From: an uncultured Thermoplasmata archaeon
Lineage (GTDB): Archaea; Thermoplasmatota; Thermoplasmata; Lutacidiplasmatales; UBA184
Assembly: GCA_963797975.1 (NCBI GenBank)
Contig: CAWCRH010000002.1
Span: forward strand, 112,524-176,523
Length of the DNA stretch: 64,000 nucleotides
Direction: 5' to 3'
Shown here: in pieces, positions 8,803 to 17,484 of the stretch
Position numbering within the stretch: the first letter of the stretch is position 1
How the letters are laid out: the number at the start of each line of letters is the position of its first letter
Translations under genes and position numbers: made by a program
Notes under the pieces: generated by a model
Databases searched by the model: none
The model's input: the letters and a program-made list of their open reading frames with translations, nothing else
Told to the model about the DNA's origin: nothing

Positions 8803-9909
8803 CTACGAAGGGACGGCCGGCTCTTGTTGAGTAGAGCAGTGGATGGTTCCGAGGCCCCAGACCAGGTCTCGGGAAGCGATGCCCACCACCGTTCGGCCTG
8901 GGAACGTATGGGAGAGGGTCGCTATCGCTTCGGAATCCGCAGGGTCGTCGAATGTCGGAACCAACACGACCCGGTTCGCGATGTAAAAGTTGGCGTAGCT
9001 CGCGGGGAGAATCTGGCCCCGGAACCGAACGGGCTCTGGGCTCGGTAGCTCCACCAACTTGAGCTTGCGTCCCAGGGTGTCACGGTGCCGTTGGAGGAGC
9101 GCAAGGTTCTGAGCCAATGCGTGTCGATTCGGGTCCCGCCGGCCGTGGGCCACGACCGTGGCCACCGTGCCCGGGCCGACGAACCGTGCGACGTCATCGA
9201 CGTGACCGTGCGTGTCGTCCCCCTTCATCCCGTACGCAAGCCATATGACATGGTCCACGCGAAGCTGCTCGTGAAAAACGCGAATGAGGTCATTGCGGAT
9301 CAAGCGAGGGTTGCGAGCCTGAGGGGAGCGCAACAGGCATTCCTCAGTCGTGAGCAGGCTTCCGCGTCCGTTCACGTCGAAGGCGCCGCCTTCCAACACC
9401 ACCCACTCCCCCTTCTGGGCCGGACACCAGCGCGGGACGCGTAGGTAGGCAGCGACGCGCTCAGGCAAGTGTCGATCGTTCGAGAAGTTGTCATACTTAG
9501 CCCACCCATTGAACCTCCAGTGGACCGCACCGAGCGATGGAAGTCCCTCCCTCGCACGGTCGCGTCGCAGAAACGTAGGACCGCTGTCCCGCGTCCAGCT
9601 GCGGTCGGTCTTCCATGAATGGAAGCGTACCCGATCCATCGGGACGTCGGAGCGCTCGAGGACCGCCCGTGCCTTCGTCAACGCGCGCCGTCCCTGGACG
9701 ACGATCTCGGCCACCTCGCCCCGTGTCACCCAACGAACGATCTCGGCGAACACCCACGGGATAGCGGAGAACTTCCCGGGCCAATCCGAAGGTTCGTGCG
9801 GCCAGGCGAGCCACGTGGCCCGGTGGGGCTCCCATTCGGCCGGCATCCGGTAGCCGAGCGCGCGGGGAGACCCCGATGGGGTCGTTCGAGCCCGTCCCGT
9901 GTCCCTCAC
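8803..9909 (-). CDS. aguA: agmatine deiminase
   Basis: N-terminal YRMPAEWEPH and C-terminal catalytic-Cys motif GTIHCSTQQEP. GTGA start/stop overlap with the upstream gene. Confidence 0.88.
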   Translation of the reverse strand: MRDTGRARTTPSGSPRALGYRMPAEWEPHRATWLAWPHEPSDWPGKFSAIPWVFAEIVRWVTRGEVAEIVVQGRRALTKARAVLERSDVPMDRVRFHSWKTDRSWTRDSGPTFLRRDRAREGLPSLGAVHWRFNGWAKYDNFSNDRHLPERVAAYLRVPRWCPAQKGEWVVLEGGAFDVNGRGSLLTTEECLLRSPQARNPRLIRNDLIRVFHEQLRVDHVIWLAYGMKGDDTHGHVDDVARFVGPGTVATVVAHGRRDPNRHALAQNLALLQRHRDTLGRKLKLVELPSPEPVRFRGQILPASYANFYIANRVVLVPTFDDPADSEAIATLSHTFPGRTVVGIASRDLVWGLGTIHCSTQQEPAVPS

Positions 9910-10853
9910 GCCCGGTCCAAGAATCGCTCGGTGATCGGTCCGTAAGCGTCCACGCGCCGGTCGCGGAGGAACGGCCAGTGCTGGCGGGTCCGCTCGACCT
10001 GGCGGTGATCGATGTCGACCACGAGCAGCTCCTCGCGCTCCTGGGTTGACTCGGCCACGACTCGGCCGAAGGGGTCGACGACGAACGATCCACCCCAGAA
10101 CTCGATGCCCGCCCCGTCCACGCGGTCACCGAGGACATCGCCGTGCTCGAGCCCTACACGGTTCGCGACCGCGACGTAGACGCCGTTGGCGATCGCATGC
10201 CCGCGTTGGATCGTTCGCCACGCGTCGTGTTGGGCCTCCCCGAACTCCTTCTTCTCTCCGGGATGCCAGCCGATCGCCGTAGGGTAGACGAGAAGTTCGG
10301 CTCCCAAGAGGGCGGTGATCCGTGCGGCTTCAGGGTACCACTGGTCCCAGCAGATCAACGGACCGACGCTCAATCCGCCCAGCGAGAACGTGCGGAAGCC
10401 GAGATCCCCCGGAGCAAAGTAGAACTTCTCGAAGTAGAGGGGGTCGTCGGGGATGTGCATTTTGCGGTAGATCCCTGCAAGGCGGCCATCCGCGTCGATC
10501 GCGGCCACCGAGTTGTGGTAGAGTCCCGGAGCCCGCCGTTCGAAGATCGGGGCAATGACGGCGATGTGCCGCGCGCGTGCCTCGTCCGCGAGCCGGTCGA
10601 CGGTGGGGCCCGGAACTGGTTCGGCCAGGTCGAACAAGGCATGGTCCTCTCGTTGGCAGAAGTACTGAAATCGGAAGAGCTCCGGAAGGACCACGAGATG
10701 GGCCTCCCTCCCAGCCGCTTCACGGATCCGGTCGATGGCCTTCTCGAGGTTCATCTCCGGATCGGCGCTCATGGACATCTGGACGATCGCCACGCGGCTT
10801 CGCGCCCGGCTCGCCATCGAACGGTGTTCGTGAGAGGGGGGATTCCGCGGCAA
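9906..10853 (-). CDS. aguB: N-carbamoylputrescine amidase (nitrilase/CN-hydrolase superfamily)
   Basis: CN-hydrolase Glu-Lys-Cys signature regions (VVLPELF; ICWDQWYPEAAR). Operonic with the agmatine deiminase gene. Alternative start at 10817. Confidence 0.82.
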   Translation of the reverse strand: MPRNPPSHEHRSMASRARSRVAIVQMSMSADPEMNLEKAIDRIREAAGREAHLVVLPELFRFQYFCQREDHALFDLAEPVPGPTVDRLADEARARHIAVIAPIFERRAPGLYHNSVAAIDADGRLAGIYRKMHIPDDPLYFEKFYFAPGDLGFRTFSLGGLSVGPLICWDQWYPEAARITALLGAELLVYPTAIGWHPGEKKEFGEAQHDAWRTIQRGHAIANGVYVAVANRVGLEHGDVLGDRVDGAGIEFWGGSFVVDPFGRVVAESTQEREELLVVDIDHRQVERTRQHWPFLRDRRVDAYGPITERFLDRA

Positions 10854-10944
10854 TTTCGCGCCGGTGCTTCCGAGGGTATGTGAGAGTTAATGCCCTTTCG
10901 GTGACGGGCGCGCGGTGCGGCGGTTGGGCCGCCCTGCTCTGCCC

Positions 10945-11532
10945 TCACAGCGCCGGCTGAACCGCGAGAAACGCAAAGTAGGCGGCGAAGCCCACTATCA
11001 GCGCCGCGGAAATATAGCGGATCCATGGCTCGATAGACGGATAGCGCTGCGTACCCGAGCGGATCAGGAGCGGGAAGAACAACACCCACAGGAGGATCGC
11101 GCCAAACAGGCCGATGAAGAGAGGCGCTCCCCCGACGTAGGCGAATCCGACGCCCGCGGTCAGCCACCAAACGATCTGGAACGGGTTACTCAGACCCGTG
11201 GCTACTCCCTGAGAGTAGGCGGTGGGCCCCGGAGGGGCCGTTGGAGTTCCCTGCGGGTTGGTTCGCAGGACTAGGTACGCGAGCACGATCATGACGACGC
11301 TACCCACCGCGTAGACCGGCCGAATGAACTCAGAGAGGTCCACCGTCGACTGGAAAGTGAAGACCAGGACTCCGAGGATTGCGTCCGCGGTTAGGGCGCC
11401 CAGGCCCGTGTAGACGCCGGCGCGCCACCGGACGGAGGAGCGGGCTGCGATGAGCGCGTTCATCGGCCCGGGAGGAACGACCAGAGAGAACCCAAGCAGC
11501 AGGCCAAAGCCGACCAAGCTGAGTTCGGACAT
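10945..11532 (-). CDS. LysE/RhtB-family amino-acid exporter
   Basis: 195 aa with N-terminal GFSLVVPPGPMNALI motif and about 6 hydrophobic segments. Confidence 0.8.
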   Translation of the reverse strand: MSELSLVGFGLLLGFSLVVPPGPMNALIAARSSVRWRAGVYTGLGALTADAILGVLVFTFQSTVDLSEFIRPVYAVGSVVMIVLAYLVLRTNPQGTPTAPPGPTAYSQGVATGLSNPFQIVWWLTAGVGFAYVGGAPLFIGLFGAILLWVLFFPLLIRSGTQRYPSIEPWIRYISAALIVGFAAYFAFLAVQPAL

Positions 11533-12124
11533 CGTTCTTTCCGGAGGTGAGATCGGCGGTCCGCGGAGAGTCGCGCTCGCCTTGACTACATCGGGCGGAA
11601 CGGTTCAAGGTGATAATGGGAGCGAATTCCCTCTTCAGACGAGCATCGATGGGGGAGGAGATCCGGCGACACCCCCCGGCTGCAGGCCGGGGCGGGAGGT
11701 CTCCGCAAGCAATCCCCTCGGCGCATCTCAGAGGACGGAGCCCCAAGGCTACCGGCTCTTCTTCTTCCGGCCCTTGGAAGCTTTCCGCTTCCCCTTGGCT
11801 GCCTTCTTCGGCATGTGCGCACCATGGTCGTTTCGGGTTATTCCCCCGTCGGTTCGTACTCCCGCGTCCGAAAGCGGCGCTCGGTTGCGCGTTCCCGCTC
11901 CATGGGAGATGGGTTTACACCTCCAACACGCGGGTTTCTTCGTTGGACTCAGTGATTTCAGCGAGTGGGCCTCGCTGAGGGATCATCTCTTCCGATGGGG
12001 AATCGAATCAGGCGCGGACGCGAGTCGCTGAGGAGAGAACGCAGTACGGACCCTCCCCGCCAGGATGCCACAGTGCGGAGGGGTTGACGCAACCCCTTTG
12101 ACCCTCCGCTGACTTTCCTCCCGC

Positions 12125-12259
12125 ATGACCGACAAGTGCGAATACTGTGGAGACTCCTTGGCCGATGACTGGGTGGCCTGCCCGAAGTGCGGTAAGCCGA
12201 AGTACGGTGGGAAGCCACTGGTCGAGATCCAGGCTTCCCAGAAGAAGCCTCCTTCGTAG
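12125..12259 (+). CDS. small zinc-ribbon protein (44 aa; not in the supplied track)
   Basis: Hand translation gives MTDKCEYCGDSLADDWVACPKCGKPKYGGKPLVEIQASQKKPPS. Cx2C-x10-Cx2C knuckles with a Lys-rich tail. Sits upstream of the MFS gene on the same strand. Confidence 0.45.
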   Translation: MTDKCEYCGDSLADDWVACPKCGKPKYGGKPLVEIQASQKKPPS

Positions 12260-12454
12260 GTTTCCTCGCCGAGGGTCTCGTACCGATAGGAGGCTCTCGC
12301 CTGGTGGCGTCGCAGTTACCAGAGCGCGACGCATCGTGCGCATCGGTATAACCCCCGTCCGCTCATCCTCCGAGATCCGCAGCGACGTCACGAGGTGACG
12401 GAGCATCTCCGTCGGCCGGCGACTCGCGCGCCGGGCACGGCCAGGAAGGACACG

Positions 12455-13927
12455 ATGGAGTACAAGTGGAAGGCGTTCTCCGTCACGTCGATCGGCGCCT
12501 TCATGGCGGCCGTCGACGGCACGATCGTTCTTCTCGCCCTGCTGCCCATTGCTCAGAACTTGAACTCGAGCTATGTGACGATCATCTGGGTCGTCTTGGC
12601 CTACCTCCTCGCCACGACCGCGTTGGTCCTCAGCTTCGGGCGGATCTCCGACATCTACGGCCGTAAGCGAATGTACAATGTCGGGTTCGTGGTCTTCACC
12701 ATCGGGTCGGCGCTCTGCGGCATCGCTACCACGGGAGTCATGCTCGTGGGCTTCCGGGCGGTTCAAGGGGTCGGAGCCGCGCTGCTCACCGCGAACTCCT
12801 TCGCGATCCTCTCCGAGGCGTTTCCCCCGGGGGAACGCGGCCGGGCGTTCGGGTCCACGGCGGTCATCTGGGGAGTCGGCTCGGTCCTCGGCATCCTCCT
12901 TGGAGCGACGATCATCGCGTTCACCAGCTGGCGCATCATTTTCCTGATCAACATCCCGATCGGGATCTTCGGAACGCTCTGGGCCTATCGTACTCTGAAG
13001 GAATCCGGCCGAACGGTCTCCGAGGGTGAATCGTTCGACCTACCCGCCGCGATCCTGTTCACCGCCGCCCTCACGTCGCTTCTGGTGGGCATCACATGGG
13101 GCCTCCTCTACACCTGGAACAACCCGGGCACCGTCCTCGGACTCGCGCTCGCTCCGCCGTTGTTCGTGGCCTTCCTCCTCTGGGAACTCTACTATAGCCG
13201 CCAGCCGATCATCGATTTTGCTTTCTTCCGAGATCGAACGTTCACGCTCGCGATATGTGCGGCGATGCTCCAGTCGATCGCGATCTTCAGCGTGAACTTC
13301 CTCGTGGTCTTTTACCTCGAGGGGATCTACGGTCTCTCCATCCTAACTGCCTCTTACCTCATCGTCCCGTATGCGGCCGCGATCGCGAGCGTCGGACCGT
13401 TCGGGGGTATGCTCTCCGACCGGTTCGGGGCCAAGAGGATCGCGACGATCGGGCTCGTGCTCCAGATATGTGCGATGCTCGCGTTAAGTCAGCTTACCAC
13501 GACCACGTCCCTTTGGACGCTTGGGCTCGTGGAAGCCGTCTTCGGCGTGGGAGGCGGCCTGTTCTTCCCCGCGAACACGAGCACGATCATGTCGAGCTCG
13601 CCGCGCGGTCGCTACGGGATCGGTTCGGGCATCATGAACACCTTCCGCAACACGGGAATGGTGCTCAGCTTCGCGGTCAGCCTCATCGCCATCACCTCGA
13701 CGCTGTCGAGCGGGCTTGTCTATCAGCTCTTCATCGGTACCCTGTCGGGCGCTCTCCCGGCCAGCGCCGCCACGGAGTATCTCGCCGGGCAGAGCCTGGC
13801 GTTCCTCATCTCCGCCACTCTCCTCTCGGTTGCCCTGTTGCTCGTGCTGGGTACCCGCTCGCGAGGGCCTCCGCATCCGGCGCCGGCCGTGGAAGGGCGG
13901 CTACCGGTCAGCGGAGAACCAAGCTAG
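12455..13927 (+). CDS. MFS transporter, DHA2 (EmrB/QacA-like, 14-TMS type)
   Basis: MEYKWKAFSVTSIGAFMAAVDGTIV start and motif FGRISDIYGRKR. About 490 aa. Paralog of the gene at 61393..62841. Confidence 0.85.
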   Translation: MEYKWKAFSVTSIGAFMAAVDGTIVLLALLPIAQNLNSSYVTIIWVVLAYLLATTALVLSFGRISDIYGRKRMYNVGFVVFTIGSALCGIATTGVMLVGFRAVQGVGAALLTANSFAILSEAFPPGERGRAFGSTAVIWGVGSVLGILLGATIIAFTSWRIIFLINIPIGIFGTLWAYRTLKESGRTVSEGESFDLPAAILFTAALTSLLVGITWGLLYTWNNPGTVLGLALAPPLFVAFLLWELYYSRQPIIDFAFFRDRTFTLAICAAMLQSIAIFSVNFLVVFYLEGIYGLSILTASYLIVPYAAAIASVGPFGGMLSDRFGAKRIATIGLVLQICAMLALSQLTTTTSLWTLGLVEAVFGVGGGLFFPANTSTIMSSSPRGRYGIGSGIMNTFRNTGMVLSFAVSLIAITSTLSSGLVYQLFIGTLSGALPASAATEYLAGQSLAFLISATLLSVALLLVLGTRSRGPPHPAPAVEGRLPVSGEPS

Positions 13928-16095
13928 CGATTCGCCGTCCCCGGGTTCGTCCGAGGTCCCAGGGTCGGACCTGACGCCGGTGCGGACGAGGTCATCGCTC
14001 CCGTAGCGACGCGTGGCCCGGGAGCCGGACGGGAGAGCGAAACGTGCACCATCGGTAGCTTGGACGGGGGACGTCCGGAGAGGTCACGACCGAAGACCCG
14101 GGCGATGGCGTGGCGCACATCGTAAATGTACATGTTCCCGTACGGGCATGCCTCGACGCAATCGCCGACCCCACAGCACTTCGTGCTGCGGAACTCTCCC
14201 TTCGTTCGGAAGTGGCCGGGCATGTCGACCAGACCGACGGGGCACGATTTCGCACAATCGAGCGTGGTGCAATCCCTGCAAATCGAGCGGTCCTTGACTT
14301 TCAGTTTGAAGAAGCCGATCTTCTGAAACGCTTGGGCGATCGCTCCAGTGTAGCACCATCCCATCGTGACACAGTTGTAGTTCCCCGAGTAGGGGATGGT
14401 AACGAACATCACGTACCAGAGCACCGCGAAGTAGAGCGTGAACAGAAAGACGGTCGGGTCGAGGCCGACCACGGTCACGTTCGTCACGTTGAGCCCATCC
14501 AGGACGGAGTACACGGACGCGACCACGAGGGAGCCCATGACGACCATGATCGTGGTCGAGTAGGTCCACGAGAATCGGCTGCTCAGATACTTCCGAGCGA
14601 GCGGGCTCGACCGGTTGAACGACTTCATTGAGTCGACGGTCGTCCCTTGGTACATCAGAGCGGCCGAGCAGAACGTCGAGCAGATGGCTCGCCGCCCGAA
14701 CAGGGCGGAGGCGGATCCCATGGCGGCGTAGGTCACCAGGATGACGATGAAGACCGCCGGAGCGATCGTGGTGGAACCGATCCCCATGCTCCACCCGAGC
14801 ACCGGAACCTGCGTTCCGGCGGGGGCGTTCGGGAAGAGCCAGGAGTAGTAGATGCTCGGAAAGAAGACCACGAACGCGCCGTAGCATCCCATGAGCAGCC
14901 CCAACCGGACACGGGTCTCGACCGACCGCGTCTCTCGGAACTTGAAGGCGACCAGAGCCCCCATCTCCAGTCCCATCATCACGAGGAACCAAGTGGAGGC
15001 GGTGACCAGCGCGAGGAAGAAGAAGCCGTTGTAGAGAGCGTTCGAGAGGACCGTTAGCGGGTCGCCCGTGAGGCCGAGCGCCGGAATCGCCGAGAGAAAG
15101 GAGGACCCGAAGACCTGGGCGTCCAGGAGCGCCCCCATGAAGATCTCGGCGACGAAGACGCTCGCGAGGAGCGCGAACGCCCAGTTGGCCTTCAGCTGCC
15201 AGACGAACGGATCTCCTCCCTCAAAGCGCTCCCAGCGTAGGACCGCATCGAAGTAGAGAACCATCTCCAAGACCAACGAGAGGGCGAAAAGCGTGGAGTC
15301 CCCGTAGGCGACCCAGAAGAAGAGCCCGGCCATCATGAGCCCGTAGACCGCGACGAGCCGGACGATGTAGCGGGCCAGCGCTGGGTTCAGGTTGCGGTGG
15401 CGATAAATGTACTCGAAGAGGAACACAAAGAGCACGATCATCGTGGCGGAACCCACGTAGACCGCGGTCGCCGACCAGCCCGCCGACGCGAGCGCGGTCG
15501 GGGTCAAGACCATGATCGGCACCTGGAGGGCAAAGATGACCGACAGCGGGCGCGGGAGCTCATGCCGCAGGAGAACGACGGTCAATCCCATCTCCGCGGC
15601 CATCGTGAAGACAAACCACGGCGATTGAACGACGTTCGCGAGAAGACTCGCAAAGCCGTAGCTGCCTTGCGCCATCGCCGAGAGCGATGTTCCGCTGGCC
15701 AGGCTGAAGACCAGCCCCATGAGAAGCTCGCTGACGAGGACGAGCGCGACGACCGCTAGTGCGAAGGGCAGCGTCGGGCGGAAGGGACGGGGAGTAAAGT
15801 CTTCCGGGCTGGTAGCGAGTCGCTCGTTCGCCTCTCGGAGGACCTGGACGAACACCGGCACCACGCTCAGGGACATCAACGCGCTCGCGATCCACAACCC
15901 GCCGACGAGCGAGGTCGGGCCCGGGTTCAGGTAGTAGTAGAGGGCCCCCGCCAGCATGCCCCCCATCATGCCGAGCAGGAACAGGGACGCCGCAGCGCGT
16001 ACTCCCGTGCGCGCGTTGGCCGCCCAGCGCACGAGCACCGCCGTGGCGAGCGCCATCGCGGCCGCCAGCGGGATCAAGTAGAGCTCGTAACTCAC
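13924..16095 (-). CDS. polytopic membrane protein fused to a NapH/CcoG-like membrane polyferredoxin module
   Basis: 723 aa. The N-terminal ~460 aa is hydrophobic with an internal repeat. The C-terminal part has membrane Cys pairs (RRAICSTFCS, NYNCVTMGWCY) and two ferredoxin-like clusters (CRDCTTLDCAKSCP, CCGVGDCVEACP). Confidence 0.8.
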   Translation of the reverse strand: MSYELYLIPLAAAMALATAVLVRWAANARTGVRAAASLFLLGMMGGMLAGALYYYLNPGPTSLVGGLWIASALMSLSVVPVFVQVLREANERLATSPEDFTPRPFRPTLPFALAVVALVLVSELLMGLVFSLASGTSLSAMAQGSYGFASLLANVVQSPWFVFTMAAEMGLTVVLLRHELPRPLSVIFALQVPIMVLTPTALASAGWSATAVYVGSATMIVLFVFLFEYIYRHRNLNPALARYIVRLVAVYGLMMAGLFFWVAYGDSTLFALSLVLEMVLYFDAVLRWERFEGGDPFVWQLKANWAFALLASVFVAEIFMGALLDAQVFGSSFLSAIPALGLTGDPLTVLSNALYNGFFFLALVTASTWFLVMMGLEMGALVAFKFRETRSVETRVRLGLLMGCYGAFVVFFPSIYYSWLFPNAPAGTQVPVLGWSMGIGSTTIAPAVFIVILVTYAAMGSASALFGRRAICSTFCSAALMYQGTTVDSMKSFNRSSPLARKYLSSRFSWTYSTTIMVVMGSLVVASVYSVLDGLNVTNVTVVGLDPTVFLFTLYFAVLWYVMFVTIPYSGNYNCVTMGWCYTGAIAQAFQKIGFFKLKVKDRSICRDCTTLDCAKSCPVGLVDMPGHFRTKGEFRSTKCCGVGDCVEACPYGNMYIYDVRHAIARVFGRDLSGRPPSKLPMVHVSLSRPAPGPRVATGAMTSSAPASGPTLGPRTNPGTANR

Positions 16096-17484
16096 GGTCC
16101 CTCCGTTTCGACCACGCGGATGCGGGAGTCGGAGGGTCGCGCTCCTGGAACGGCCACGGCTCGTGCCGGGGCGTTCCTGGGTCCATGAGAGCCACCCAGC
16201 TCCGGCGCAATGGGAGGCCGGTCGAGCCCCTCCCGGTCAGGAGCCGTCCGTCCCCCAGTCCCATTCTCGGCCCAGAGGCGGCGGCCTGCGCTGACGGCCG
16301 AGGCGGTCGGGTCGATCCGGTTTAGGGTGACCTTTGGCCAGAGCGCGAGAGCCAACACGAACACCCCGAGCATGGCAAAGCCAAGCGCGAATCGAAGAAC
16401 GAGTGCGACCGGGCCGGAGAAGGGGGGGGCCACCGCTCCCCAGGATGCTGGTGCCCCGGCCACCCCGAGGATTTCGTTGACGAGTCCCGCGGTCTGGGGG
16501 CTCGCCCACAGGGGCGGTACCCACGTCAGGAGGAGTAGGCTAGTGAACAGGAGGCCCCCCCGCAACGCCTTCGTCGACCGGCGAGGAGCCTGCGGTGCTA
16601 GCACATCCAAAAGTGCGCTTGGGAACAACGCGATTGCGATGACGAGCCCGGCGACCGCCTGATGCTCGAAAAGGAACCCAAACCACGCCGCGGGCGTCGT
16701 GAAGGCCCCCGGAAGCGGAAAAGAGAGCGGCGAATGCCTCGAGCGACCACAGCGCGGCCGCCGCGATGAGCACGCCGCGGGCCACGGCCGCAACAAGGTC
16801 CTGGCCACGGAGCGGGGGCGAGTCCGAGGTACCCGATGGCCCATGGTAGGGGACGCCCGAGAGCCCCAGCATGGGTCCGTAGGCGACTAAGATCGCCTCC
16901 TGAGCGAGAAGAGCGACGAAGACCACCAGCATCTGGAACACTCCCAGGTACCAGTTGTTCGCGAGCAGGGTGTCGACACTCGTCCCGGTCGTCTGGGCGA
17001 CCACCCCGAGGCCGGCTGCGCTTGCGGCGGTGGTCGTGCAGCACGCTCCCATGGTCACGAGGGCGAGCAGCGCTGGCGTGAGTCCGGCGATCGACCCCGC
17101 GGCGAGGGGGCGGCCGGCGGCGCGTCGAAGAGCGATCAGCCGGGCGGCGATGACCGCGGCCACCGACATGCCGATGCCGACCCCGATGGAGACGACGATC
17201 ATCGAGACCGTGGGGAAGAACGGGAGCGCGAGGCTTCCCCCCGGGAAGACCACGAGCAGGGCCGGGTAGTTCCACCATGGGTTTCCGGCCGTGATGAACC
17301 AGACCGTGAGGGAACTGGCCCCCGTCCGCGCAAAGACCAACATCCCGCCGAGAAGCATGGAGGCGAAGGCATAGGTGCCCGCGATCAGGAAGAAGAGGGC
17401 GATGACCCACGGGCGTCGGAACGCGGAGCGCGTAGCGCGCGCCGACAGCACAGCGCCGGCCGTCGTTCCGGCGGGAGGACCCAT
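16092..17484 (-). pseudogene. polytopic membrane protein, reading frame broken near 16706-16710 (frameshift or assembly indel)
   Basis: ORF 16540..17484 is protein-like only down to about 16715. ORF 16092..16844 is protein-like only below about 16715. Each turns Arg-rich beyond that junction. A C5 run sits at the junction. Contains the motif MGACCTTTAASAAGLG. Confidence 0.65.

Follow-up and report, generated by a model that had tools for sequence, protein, structure and literature searches.

A Met-lined membrane domain fused to a distant NapH/YccM-like iron-sulfur module in Thermoplasmata: a candidate copper-handling protein of archaeal respiration

In a 64,000-nucleotide stretch of DNA from an uncultured Thermoplasmata archaeon (GenBank assembly GCA_963797975.1, contig CAWCRH010000002.1, positions 112,524 to 176,523; hereafter the window), one gene encodes a 723-residue membrane protein (the target) in which a polytopic domain lined with Met and Glu residues is joined to an iron-sulfur (Fe-S) module of the polyferredoxin type. 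Judged from sequence, the target most likely handles copper (or electrons) for respiration. The best reading, which we favor tentatively, is that of a CcoG-like cupric reductase fused to a copper conduit for the biogenesis of respiratory cuproproteins. Five features together suggest a copper-reducing, copper-conducting membrane system that would serve respiratory cuproproteins: the CcoG-like core, the Met/Glu domain with its MxxxM motifs, the partner proteins with vicinal Cys residues, the predicted cytoplasm-facing Cys pairs and the recurrent siting of the gene among copper and heme-copper genes.

The initial annotation, made from the letters and their open reading frames (ORFs) alone, had placed residues ~468-723 of the 723-residue protein at 13924-14694. 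The ORF was confirmed as complete (13924-16095, reverse strand), and nucleotide 14694 is the start of codon 468, as had been given. The gene starts with GTG and shares its first 4 nucleotides (nt) with the end of the upstream gene, stop codon included. More than 439 full-length homologs of approximately 700-740 residues were found; the named ones come from metagenome-assembled genomes (MAGs) of Thermoplasmata, and many carry the JGI label "polyferredoxin," with "4Fe-4S binding protein" also used in databases. A genome scan detected relatives in at least 264 species representatives. Among the 80 best of these relatives, 79 carried titles of Thermoplasmata or Thermoplasmatota MAGs, including two titled Ca. 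Lutacidiplasmatales / Lutacidiplasma silvani; the remaining one was deposited only as "bacterium." The window sequence itself was found in soil metagenome runs, and a soil metagenome locus (L083; loci are given L numbers and divergent proteins P numbers) encodes an 80%-identical ortholog in full synteny with the window. Members of the divergent cluster that have names derive from Thermoplasmataceae, Thermoplasmatota and Thermocladium MAGs; the Thermocladium homolog, used as query, returned only 9 relatives. A published description of Lutacidiplasmatales (PMC9287336) presents most of them as aerobes that possess complex IV and blue copper proteins.

On profile evidence, residues 390-660 fall within the NapH/YccM(CcoG)-type polyferredoxin superfamily as a remote member. 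The NCBIfam NapH model PRK09477 matched the target with E = 5.7e-6 (residues 462-652 to model positions 95-271), at a score of 25.6 bits, far below the curated cut-off of 234. Among 15 diverse members of the family, PRK09477 matched 11 (best, 8.5e-10) and TIGR02163 (napH_) matched 10 (best, 5.3e-11), all below threshold. Pfam Fer4_5 was absent from the window protein and weak in P0190 (16.1 vs. 22 bits). When the family profile was compared with Escherichia coli proteins, it aligned to NapH (b2204; Prob 96%, E = 4e-9) and to YccM (b0992; Prob 96.5%, E = 9.4e-10). A relaxed alignment was collinear from approximately residue 390 and reached NapH residues 19-287, the start near 390 being its low-confidence part. 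The NapH-like module probably begins near residue 390, and not near 468 as first annotated. FGRRAICSTFCS aligned to NapH AGKRLFCSWVCP and to YccM KKAFCSWLCP, and the region of the first Cys pair aligned to NapH GKRLFCSWVCP. Because the scores are far below the family cut-offs, the target is a distant relative rather than a NapH or CcoG ortholog. The COG0348-type resemblance proposed initially thus stands at the superfamily level, through the PRK09477 and TIGR02163 matches and the collinear alignment to NapH and YccM, and stops short of the cut-off of any one of these families.

Topology was predicted by combining the helices of an AlphaFold2 (AF2) model with counts of Lys and Arg (K+R) in the loops over 66 sequences. 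The K+R count was 0-0.4 in the outer loops (57-59, 134-158, 197-204, 265-267, 330-367, 412-443 and 535-546), 0.8-5.8 in the alternate, inner loops and 15.9 after residue 571. The target is predicted to have 15 transmembrane (TM) spans starting from an outside N-terminus, and to expose its ferredoxin domain, like the two Cys pairs, to the cytoplasm. TM12 to TM15 correspond to AF2 helices 392-411, 444-466, 506-534 and 547-570; they form a four-TM module with both ends cytoplasmic, residues 385-397, 467-505 and 571 onward being inside according to the positive-inside pattern. TM13 and TM15 end on the cytoplasmic side 5-6 residues before the Cys pairs, which places both pairs outside the bilayer. 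The pairs had been described as helix-embedded, which this placement contradicts; the cytoplasmic side proposed for the clusters agrees with the charge pattern, and the predicted topology does not put the motifs inside the bilayer.

The four Cys strings quoted in the initial annotation are all present in the C-terminal part of the target: FGRRAICSTFCSA at residues 466-478, GNYNCVTMGWCYTG at 571-584, CRDCTTLDCAKSCP at 606-619 and CCGVGDCVEACP at 640-651. Twelve of its 13 Cys fall within residues 472-650. All 12 were invariant across 66 homologs (55-80% identity), and 11 of them (C641 excepted) were also invariant in the 15 diverse members, with identity down to 28%. Such clustering and invariance indicate more than a chance pattern. 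F466, G467, C472, S473 and C476 were invariant in the diverse members, as were all four Cys of the two pairs; the Pro of pair 1 is kept only in the divergent clade P0190/P0207/P0214, which retains the canonical GRRxYCSxLCP. Both pairs of the target lack the Pro of CxxxCP, as had been seen, and the second pair is Cx5C, not CxxxC. NYNCVTMGWCYTG aligned to YccM HAWCRY--LCPYG, and the two-residue insertion in this alignment indicates that Cx5C corresponds to CxxxC plus two residues.

The ferredoxin domain was recognized by Pfam Fer4_7 (PF12838) over residues 606-653, marginally above the gathering threshold (28.5 bits vs. a cut-off of 27; 29.2 bits with the C-terminal fragment alone as query). Fer4_7 was the only family that Pfam recognized in the target. 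Searches of the PDB with the target, by sequence and by profile, matched the ferredoxin domain only (HycB/ArrB-type subunits, E = 1e-4) and returned no solved NapH-like structure. The spacing of motif 1 had been miscounted as Cx2Cx5Cx3CP; it is Cx2Cx4Cx3CP, the common spacing of DmsB/NrfC/HydN/ArrB-type modules, and aligns with ArrB, HycB and EbdB. Unusual spacing had been noted for both motifs; that of motif 1 is not unusual. Across the family, motif 2 takes the three-Cys form Cx5Cx3CP. The canonical CxxCxxCxxxCP was found in P0131 only. In the window's clade, the clade-specific C641 stands next to the first Cys of motif 2, an addition that distinguishes it from the SdhB/FrdB and DmsB-type motifs. 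The domain has seven family-invariant Cys (eight in the window's clade), and the seven would fit one [4Fe-4S] and one [3Fe-4S] cluster. The three-Cys spacing Cx5Cx3CP is that of [3Fe-4S] sites, which lie next to quinone sites in SdhB/FrdB. Unlike the DmsB/NrfC/ArrB-type modules, the target has one dicluster unit only.

The N-terminal domain (N-domain) had been taken as a domain of about 460 residues and of unknown function. It is uncharacterized, matching no Pfam or NCBIfam family, and it more probably comprises residues 1-389. Foldseek comparison of the whole AF2 model with the PDB gave no fold match (best E = 0.2, TM-score at most 0.16), and the predicted local distance difference test (pLDDT) of residues 1-389, averaged over 10-residue blocks, was approximately 76-97 and mostly above 90. 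A HMMER search of 1.84 billion representatives with residues 1-460 returned only 105 relatives, either fusions of 560-720 residues or stand-alone proteins of approximately 300 residues that cover residues 5-295. In residues 1-460, 18 of the 22 Met were invariant across the 66 homologs (hypergeometric P = 2.6e-12), as were 7 Glu and 7 Trp. The TM helices of the N-domain carry approximately 17 invariant Met and 5 invariant Glu, with MxxxM at M43, M165 and M374 and ExxM at E123 and E317, all inside TM helices. An internal repeat relates residues 104-175 to residues 298-384 (hhalign Prob 81%, E = 1.2e-5).

A stand-alone, distant paralog of the N-domain (329 residues) is the first gene of an apparent three-gene unit with the partner gene described below and the target. 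It aligned to residues 5-276 (hhalign Prob 98.4%, E = 6.6e-15), and the homology was seen only by profile-profile comparison, BLASTP of the 329-residue ORF against the 723-residue protein being not significant. The paralog has an ortholog in L002 (E = 4e-33), is syntenic in L083 and matches no Pfam family. In this paralog NELLM is conserved, whereas the MxxEM motif is without its Glu. Many loci have paralogs of the same or of a closer type beside the target gene.

The second gene of the unit encodes a conserved membrane protein of approximately 463 residues with a vicinal Cys pair in a TM helix (the CC protein). It was found immediately upstream of the target homolog in 62 of 82 loci of the window's clade, with a 4-nt overlap between the two genes in the window and in L083. 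Its invariant residues are C149-C150 (in GACC(S/T)TTAA), E197, W71, P74 and P88. The protein had 0 Pfam or NCBIfam matches, and Foldseek of its model (pLDDT 80) gave no fold match in the PDB. In the window, an extra base at approximately 16701, in a run of C (16691-16705), splits the gene into two overlapping ORFs of 314 and 250 residues. Contigs of three independent soil runs lack base 16701, and its deletion restores an intact 463-residue ORF; the frameshift is thus an assembly error, not a sign of a pseudogene. In 9 divergent loci, the gene directly downstream of the target homolog encodes a different family of membrane proteins of approximately 280 residues, defined by LPAxGVxGGASCC(I/L)S (fam3; examples in L128, L129 [8868-9728], L130, L146, L127 and L159), also with a vicinal Cys pair in a TM helix. 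The hhalign comparison of fam3 with the CC-protein alignment was not significant, and the shared CC motif may therefore be convergent or the homology too remote to detect. Neither fam3 nor L088_522 matched Pfam or NCBIfam.

The context of divergent relatives was assessed in 75 diverse metagenome loci by unbiased ORF clustering. COX1, present in 18 of the 75 loci, was the commonest non-self neighbor family. ABC ATPases came next with 16 loci, then fam3 with 9 and cytochrome b with 8; two cupredoxin families were present in 7 and 6 loci and Rieske proteins in 6. COX2, a UbiA/CtaB-type prenyltransferase, DUF1404 and a CcmF/NrfE-like protein also occurred among the neighbors. At least one respiratory or copper gene was found near the target homolog in 29 of the 75 loci. 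At least 8 different arrangements were observed among homologs that are 33-80% identical to one another, and the linkage is thus not simple inherited synteny. The Thermocladium locus (L087) has the order SoxE, Rieske, cytochrome b and target, with a 4-nt overlap between the cytochrome b stop and the target start; a Thermoplasmatota MAG (L088) has a cupredoxin-like gene, Rieske, cytochrome b, a 522-residue ORF and target. COX1 follows the target homolog in L090 (a MAG, where it does so directly), L093-96 and L098. The homolog lies inside cox/cupredoxin/bc clusters in L120, L153 and L163; that of L153 runs on one strand as COX1, an 88-residue ORF, cupredoxin, target, cupredoxin, a 109-residue ORF, COX2, Rieske and cytochrome b. 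ORFs of the high-GC loci were clustered under a filter on GC content at third codon positions, against long antisense ORFs. In the window's clade, a cupredoxin-like ORF was found approximately 3 kb upstream in three loci (L065, L066 and L071). For Oxyplasma meridianum, a cultured member of Thermoplasmatales, the genome description lists in a cupredoxin/cox I-II cluster a "polyferredoxin NapH superfamily" gene (PMC11349054), which may belong to the target family. ABC transporters were rejected as partners, given that 16 of 75 loci is close to the chance rate estimated for so large a family. Isocitrate lyase, malate synthase, CoA-transferase and similar neighbors in the window's clade were set aside as lineage synteny on the other strand.

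In the proposed, CcoG-like mechanism, a low-potential donor, probably ferredoxin, would reduce the cytoplasmic Fe-S clusters. These would in turn deliver the electrons to a metal bound at the interface Cys pairs, with Cu(II) being reduced to Cu(I). The Met/Glu-lined N-domain would form the path for copper across or into the membrane, and the CC protein would act as Cu(I) acceptor or co-transporter. The role would be copper supply to, or copper homeostasis for, the respiratory cuproproteins (CuA, CuB and blue copper proteins). Several results weigh against this scheme. The target has no Ig-like FixG_C domain by Pfam, and no CcoG model was among the top NCBIfam matches of the 15 diverse members. 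The N-domain has no conserved His or Cys, of which the absence of His is the one that counts here, and no similarity to known copper transporters was detectable by Pfam or by Foldseek against the PDB. The AF2 model is poor at the Cys-rich part (pLDDT 45-77) and gives no site geometry. No respiratory or oxidase gene was found within 8-10 kb of the target gene in the window's clade, and no CopA-type/P1B ATPase or HMA/CopZ motif was found in approximately 160 flanks searched. Finally, gene adjacency cannot separate an assembly factor from a subunit.

The main rival reading, which we regard as possible but rather improbable, makes the target a module that feeds electrons into the respiratory chain (or draws them from it). 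Electrons would pass from cytoplasmic ferredoxin or another donor through the Fe-S clusters and the four interface Cys (possibly with an extra cluster) to quinone held in the membrane part or straight to the bc/oxidase complex, with the N-domain as the quinone-binding or ion-translocating part. The placement of the target homolog among same-strand structural genes in L153 and the overlap with cytochrome b in Thermocladium are consistent with such a module, as are the annotation given to the nearest named relative, NapH (subunit of a quinol dehydrogenase), the match of the family-wide Cx5Cx3CP to the [3Fe-4S] motif near the quinone sites of SdhB/FrdB and the five invariant intramembrane Glu. 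However, it leaves the extreme conservation of Met, the MxxxM motifs and the vicinal-CC partner unexplained; the gene is kept away from respiratory genes in most genomes, including that of the window, no quinone-site motif was recognized, and no structural similarity to respiratory subunits was found in the PDB. An unlikely but more far-reaching reading, apart from this rival, is that the Met domain, the Fe-S module and the vicinal-Cys partner form a hitherto unrecognized integral component of archaeal terminal-oxidase/bc supercomplexes. In one version, the component may provide an energy-conserving entry of electrons from reduced ferredoxin into the aerobic chain; in the other, it may be a membrane copper relay of new fold that metallates the CuA, CuB and blue-copper sites without CopA/CopZ/Sco-type partners.

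Two further functions are, in our estimate, quite improbable, and about equally so. In the first, the target would be part of a reductase/transport system for a different soft metal or metalloid (Hg, Ag, As) or of a thiol/persulfide redox system in the membrane, with the vicinal-CC protein acting like MerT/MerF or ArsP. Consistent with it are the vicinal Cys pairs of the partners in a TM helix, the two Cys pairs beside the Fe-S clusters, the Met-rich membrane domain and, in the window, a convergent EmrB-type efflux gene of the major facilitator superfamily (MFS). Yet the family is a core gene in at least 264 species with flanks that lack mer or ars genes, its recurrent neighbors are oxidase and cupredoxin genes, and only 6 of 82 loci have the MFS neighbor. 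In the second, the target would handle heme during oxidase biogenesis, either by holding heme iron in the reduced state or as a chaperone of heme o/a, with Met side chains as transient axial ligands. This function is suggested by UbiA/CtaB-type prenyltransferase and CcmF/NrfE-like heme lyase neighbors at single loci and by the hemB, hemL and hemC genes that adjoin the target homolog in L092. Each of these neighbors is confined to one locus or lineage, however, and the alignment has neither a conserved His nor a WWD-type heme-handling motif. The approximately 17 conserved Met spread over most helices are unlike any known heme site, and the Cys pairs would be left unexplained.

With NapH/MauN (TIGR02163, PRK09477, COG0348), the target shares the four-TM core with collinear profile alignment, a (K/R)xxCSxxC after the second TM of the module with a second Cys pair after the fourth, and the C-terminal cytoplasmic dicluster ferredoxin domain. 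It differs from NapH in scoring approximately one tenth of the cut-off, in lacking the Pro of both CxxxCP motifs, in the Cx5C of its second pair and in a motif 2 without the canonical second Cys; it also lacks a NapG/NapC/NapA context, is archaeal and is fused to the 389-residue N-domain. NosR/NirI also have a NapH-like core that is fused N-terminally to another domain and serves a copper enzyme. In contrast to them, the target has no FMN_bind domain by Pfam, its N-terminal part is polytopic in the membrane rather than periplasmic, and nos genes are absent. With CcoG/FixG/RdxA, the cupric reductase of cbb3 oxidase assembly, and its short homolog YccM, the target shares the superfamily core and Cys motifs on the cytoplasmic face next to Fe-S clusters, and with CcoG also a gene location beside heme-copper oxidase genes in several target lineages, though not in the window's clade within 8-10 kb. 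CcoG, the functionally characterized superfamily member, reduces Cu(II), carries two [4Fe-4S] clusters and two copper sites, and is encoded next to its oxidase (PMC7558416; PMC13038864). Unlike CcoG, the target lacks the Ig-like domain, has seven rather than eight conserved ferredoxin Cys and has the extra Met-lined domain; ccoHIS homologs were not seen, although they were not sought.

Other systems resemble the target or its partner only in how they may work. The copper importer CcoA has a metal site formed by M233xxxM237 and H261xxxM265 in TM helices (PMC7558416). CcoA/CalT and the CTR importers share with the N-domain a conserved MxxxM inside TM helices; there is no similarity in sequence or fold (for MFS, Foldseek TM-score at most 0.16, E at least 0.2), and the N-domain lacks the conserved His. 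MerT/MerF and ArsP use an adjacent Cys-Cys pair in a TM helix for the hand-over of soft metals. The CC protein shares such a vicinal pair with them, shows no sequence similarity in Pfam or NCBIfam searches and is much larger. A dual Sec-Tat NapH-NapG fusion (Tooke et al. 2017, PMC5449189), a type defined by a twin-Arg motif ahead of its final, weakly hydrophobic TM helix and by an extracytoplasmic domain with several clusters after it, was considered and rejected: the RR at residues 468-469 belongs to the GRRxxC motif of NapH, the domain that follows is strongly positive (K+R 15.9), and there is a single dicluster unit.

The C-terminal module belongs to a known superfamily, and proteins of this type are already named "polyferredoxin" or "4Fe-4S binding protein" in databases. 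In the literature searched, we found no description of the fusion architecture, the Met-lined domain with its paralogs, the CC partner or the link to oxidase genes, and nothing on a polyferredoxin with sulfocyanin, on archaeal NapH/CcoG/NosR or on DUF1404. The only archaeal Cu(II) reductase cited in one review is a CopZ fusion (PMC7558416). How archaea deliver copper to their heme-copper oxidases and blue copper proteins, and reduce Cu(II) for them, is almost entirely uncharacterized, and the target family is a concrete candidate, with a fusion that joins a CcoG-like Fe-S core to a Met/Glu-lined polytopic domain without known fold. If the target were instead an electron-input module, it would bear on the re-oxidation of ferredoxin in aerobic Thermoplasmatota, an unsettled matter. 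Either reading would give a functional context to three "dark" membrane families, those of the N-domain, the paralogs that stand alone and the CC protein. The cultured relative O. meridianum may permit experiments.

Features of the target gene and its unit in the window (aa, residues of the encoded protein)
Feature	Position	Strand	Description
Target ORF, 723 aa	13924..16095	-	Complete; N-domain, NapH-like four-TM module, ferredoxin domain and disordered tail
N-domain, aa 1-389	14929..16095	-	Approximately 11 predicted TM helices and two non-spanning helices
Repeat copy A, aa 104-175	15571..15786	-	Helix with ELLMG, connecting helix, helix with SPWFVFTMAAEM
Repeat copy B, aa 298-384	14944..15204	-	Helix with AEIFMG, connecting helix, helix with STWFLVMMGLEMG
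NapH/YccM-like membrane module, aa 390-599	14299..14928	-	TM12-TM15 and two Cys pairs predicted to face the cytoplasm
Cys pair 1, FGRRAICSTFCSA (C472, C476)	14662..14700	-	CSxxC; Ser/Thr in place of Pro
Cys pair 2, GNYNCVTMGWCYTG (C575, C581)	14344..14385	-	Cx5C, no Pro
Dicluster ferredoxin domain (predicted cytoplasmic), aa 600-660	14116..14298	-	Pfam Fer4_7
Ferredoxin motif 1	14239-14280	-	Cx2Cx4Cx3CP
Ferredoxin motif 2	14143-14178	-	CCx4Cx3CP; family-wide Cx5Cx3CP (3 Cys)
C-terminal tail, aa 670-723, and stop codon	13924..14088	-	Pro/Ala/Gly-rich, non-conserved, AF2 pLDDT <50
Conserved partner gene (CC protein), approximately 463 aa	16092..17484	-	Membrane protein; vicinal Cys pair in TM helix (LVTMGACCTTTAA)
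Stand-alone distant N-domain paralog, 329 aa	17588..18577	-	Related to aa 5-276 of the target

Additional observations concern the neighboring genes. In four loci, close to COX1 or cupredoxin genes, the CC-type gene is followed by one for a DUF1404 protein (PF07185, E = 1e-43, conserved His; sites include L128:9554-10348, L129:9823-10362 and L146:9702-10247). In L141 (2026-3927), a 633-residue CcmF/NrfE-like heme lyase (TIGR03145, E = 1.5e-50) is encoded between the target homolog and COX1, which is odd if the contig comes from Thermoplasmatota, where c-type cytochromes are reported absent (PMC9287336). The lone target homolog of L092 stands beside hemC, hemL and hemB on the opposite strand (10011-13149), in one divergent lineage. 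The cupredoxin-like protein of L088 (2954-3661), encoded upstream of the Rieske and cytochrome b genes, ends in TWQCYVPCG...GWMAGQ. This CxxxC...M ending, in which no His can be seen, recalls CuA rather than a type-1 site; such a protein was found in L111, L112 and L114 and, more weakly, in L065, L066 and L071.

In the window, the gene convergent with the target encodes a DHA2/EmrB-type MFS efflux permease (12395-13927, forward strand), and the ends of the two genes overlap by 4 nt (13924-13927). Because this neighbor occurs in so few of the related loci, it is probably unrelated to the target. Farther away (8803-10853, reverse strand), genes for an agmatine deiminase (PAD_porph) and an N-carbamoylputrescine amidase (CN_hydrolase) overlap by 4 nt and form a putrescine-synthesis pair, their identities coming from Pfam matches on the syntenic locus L083.

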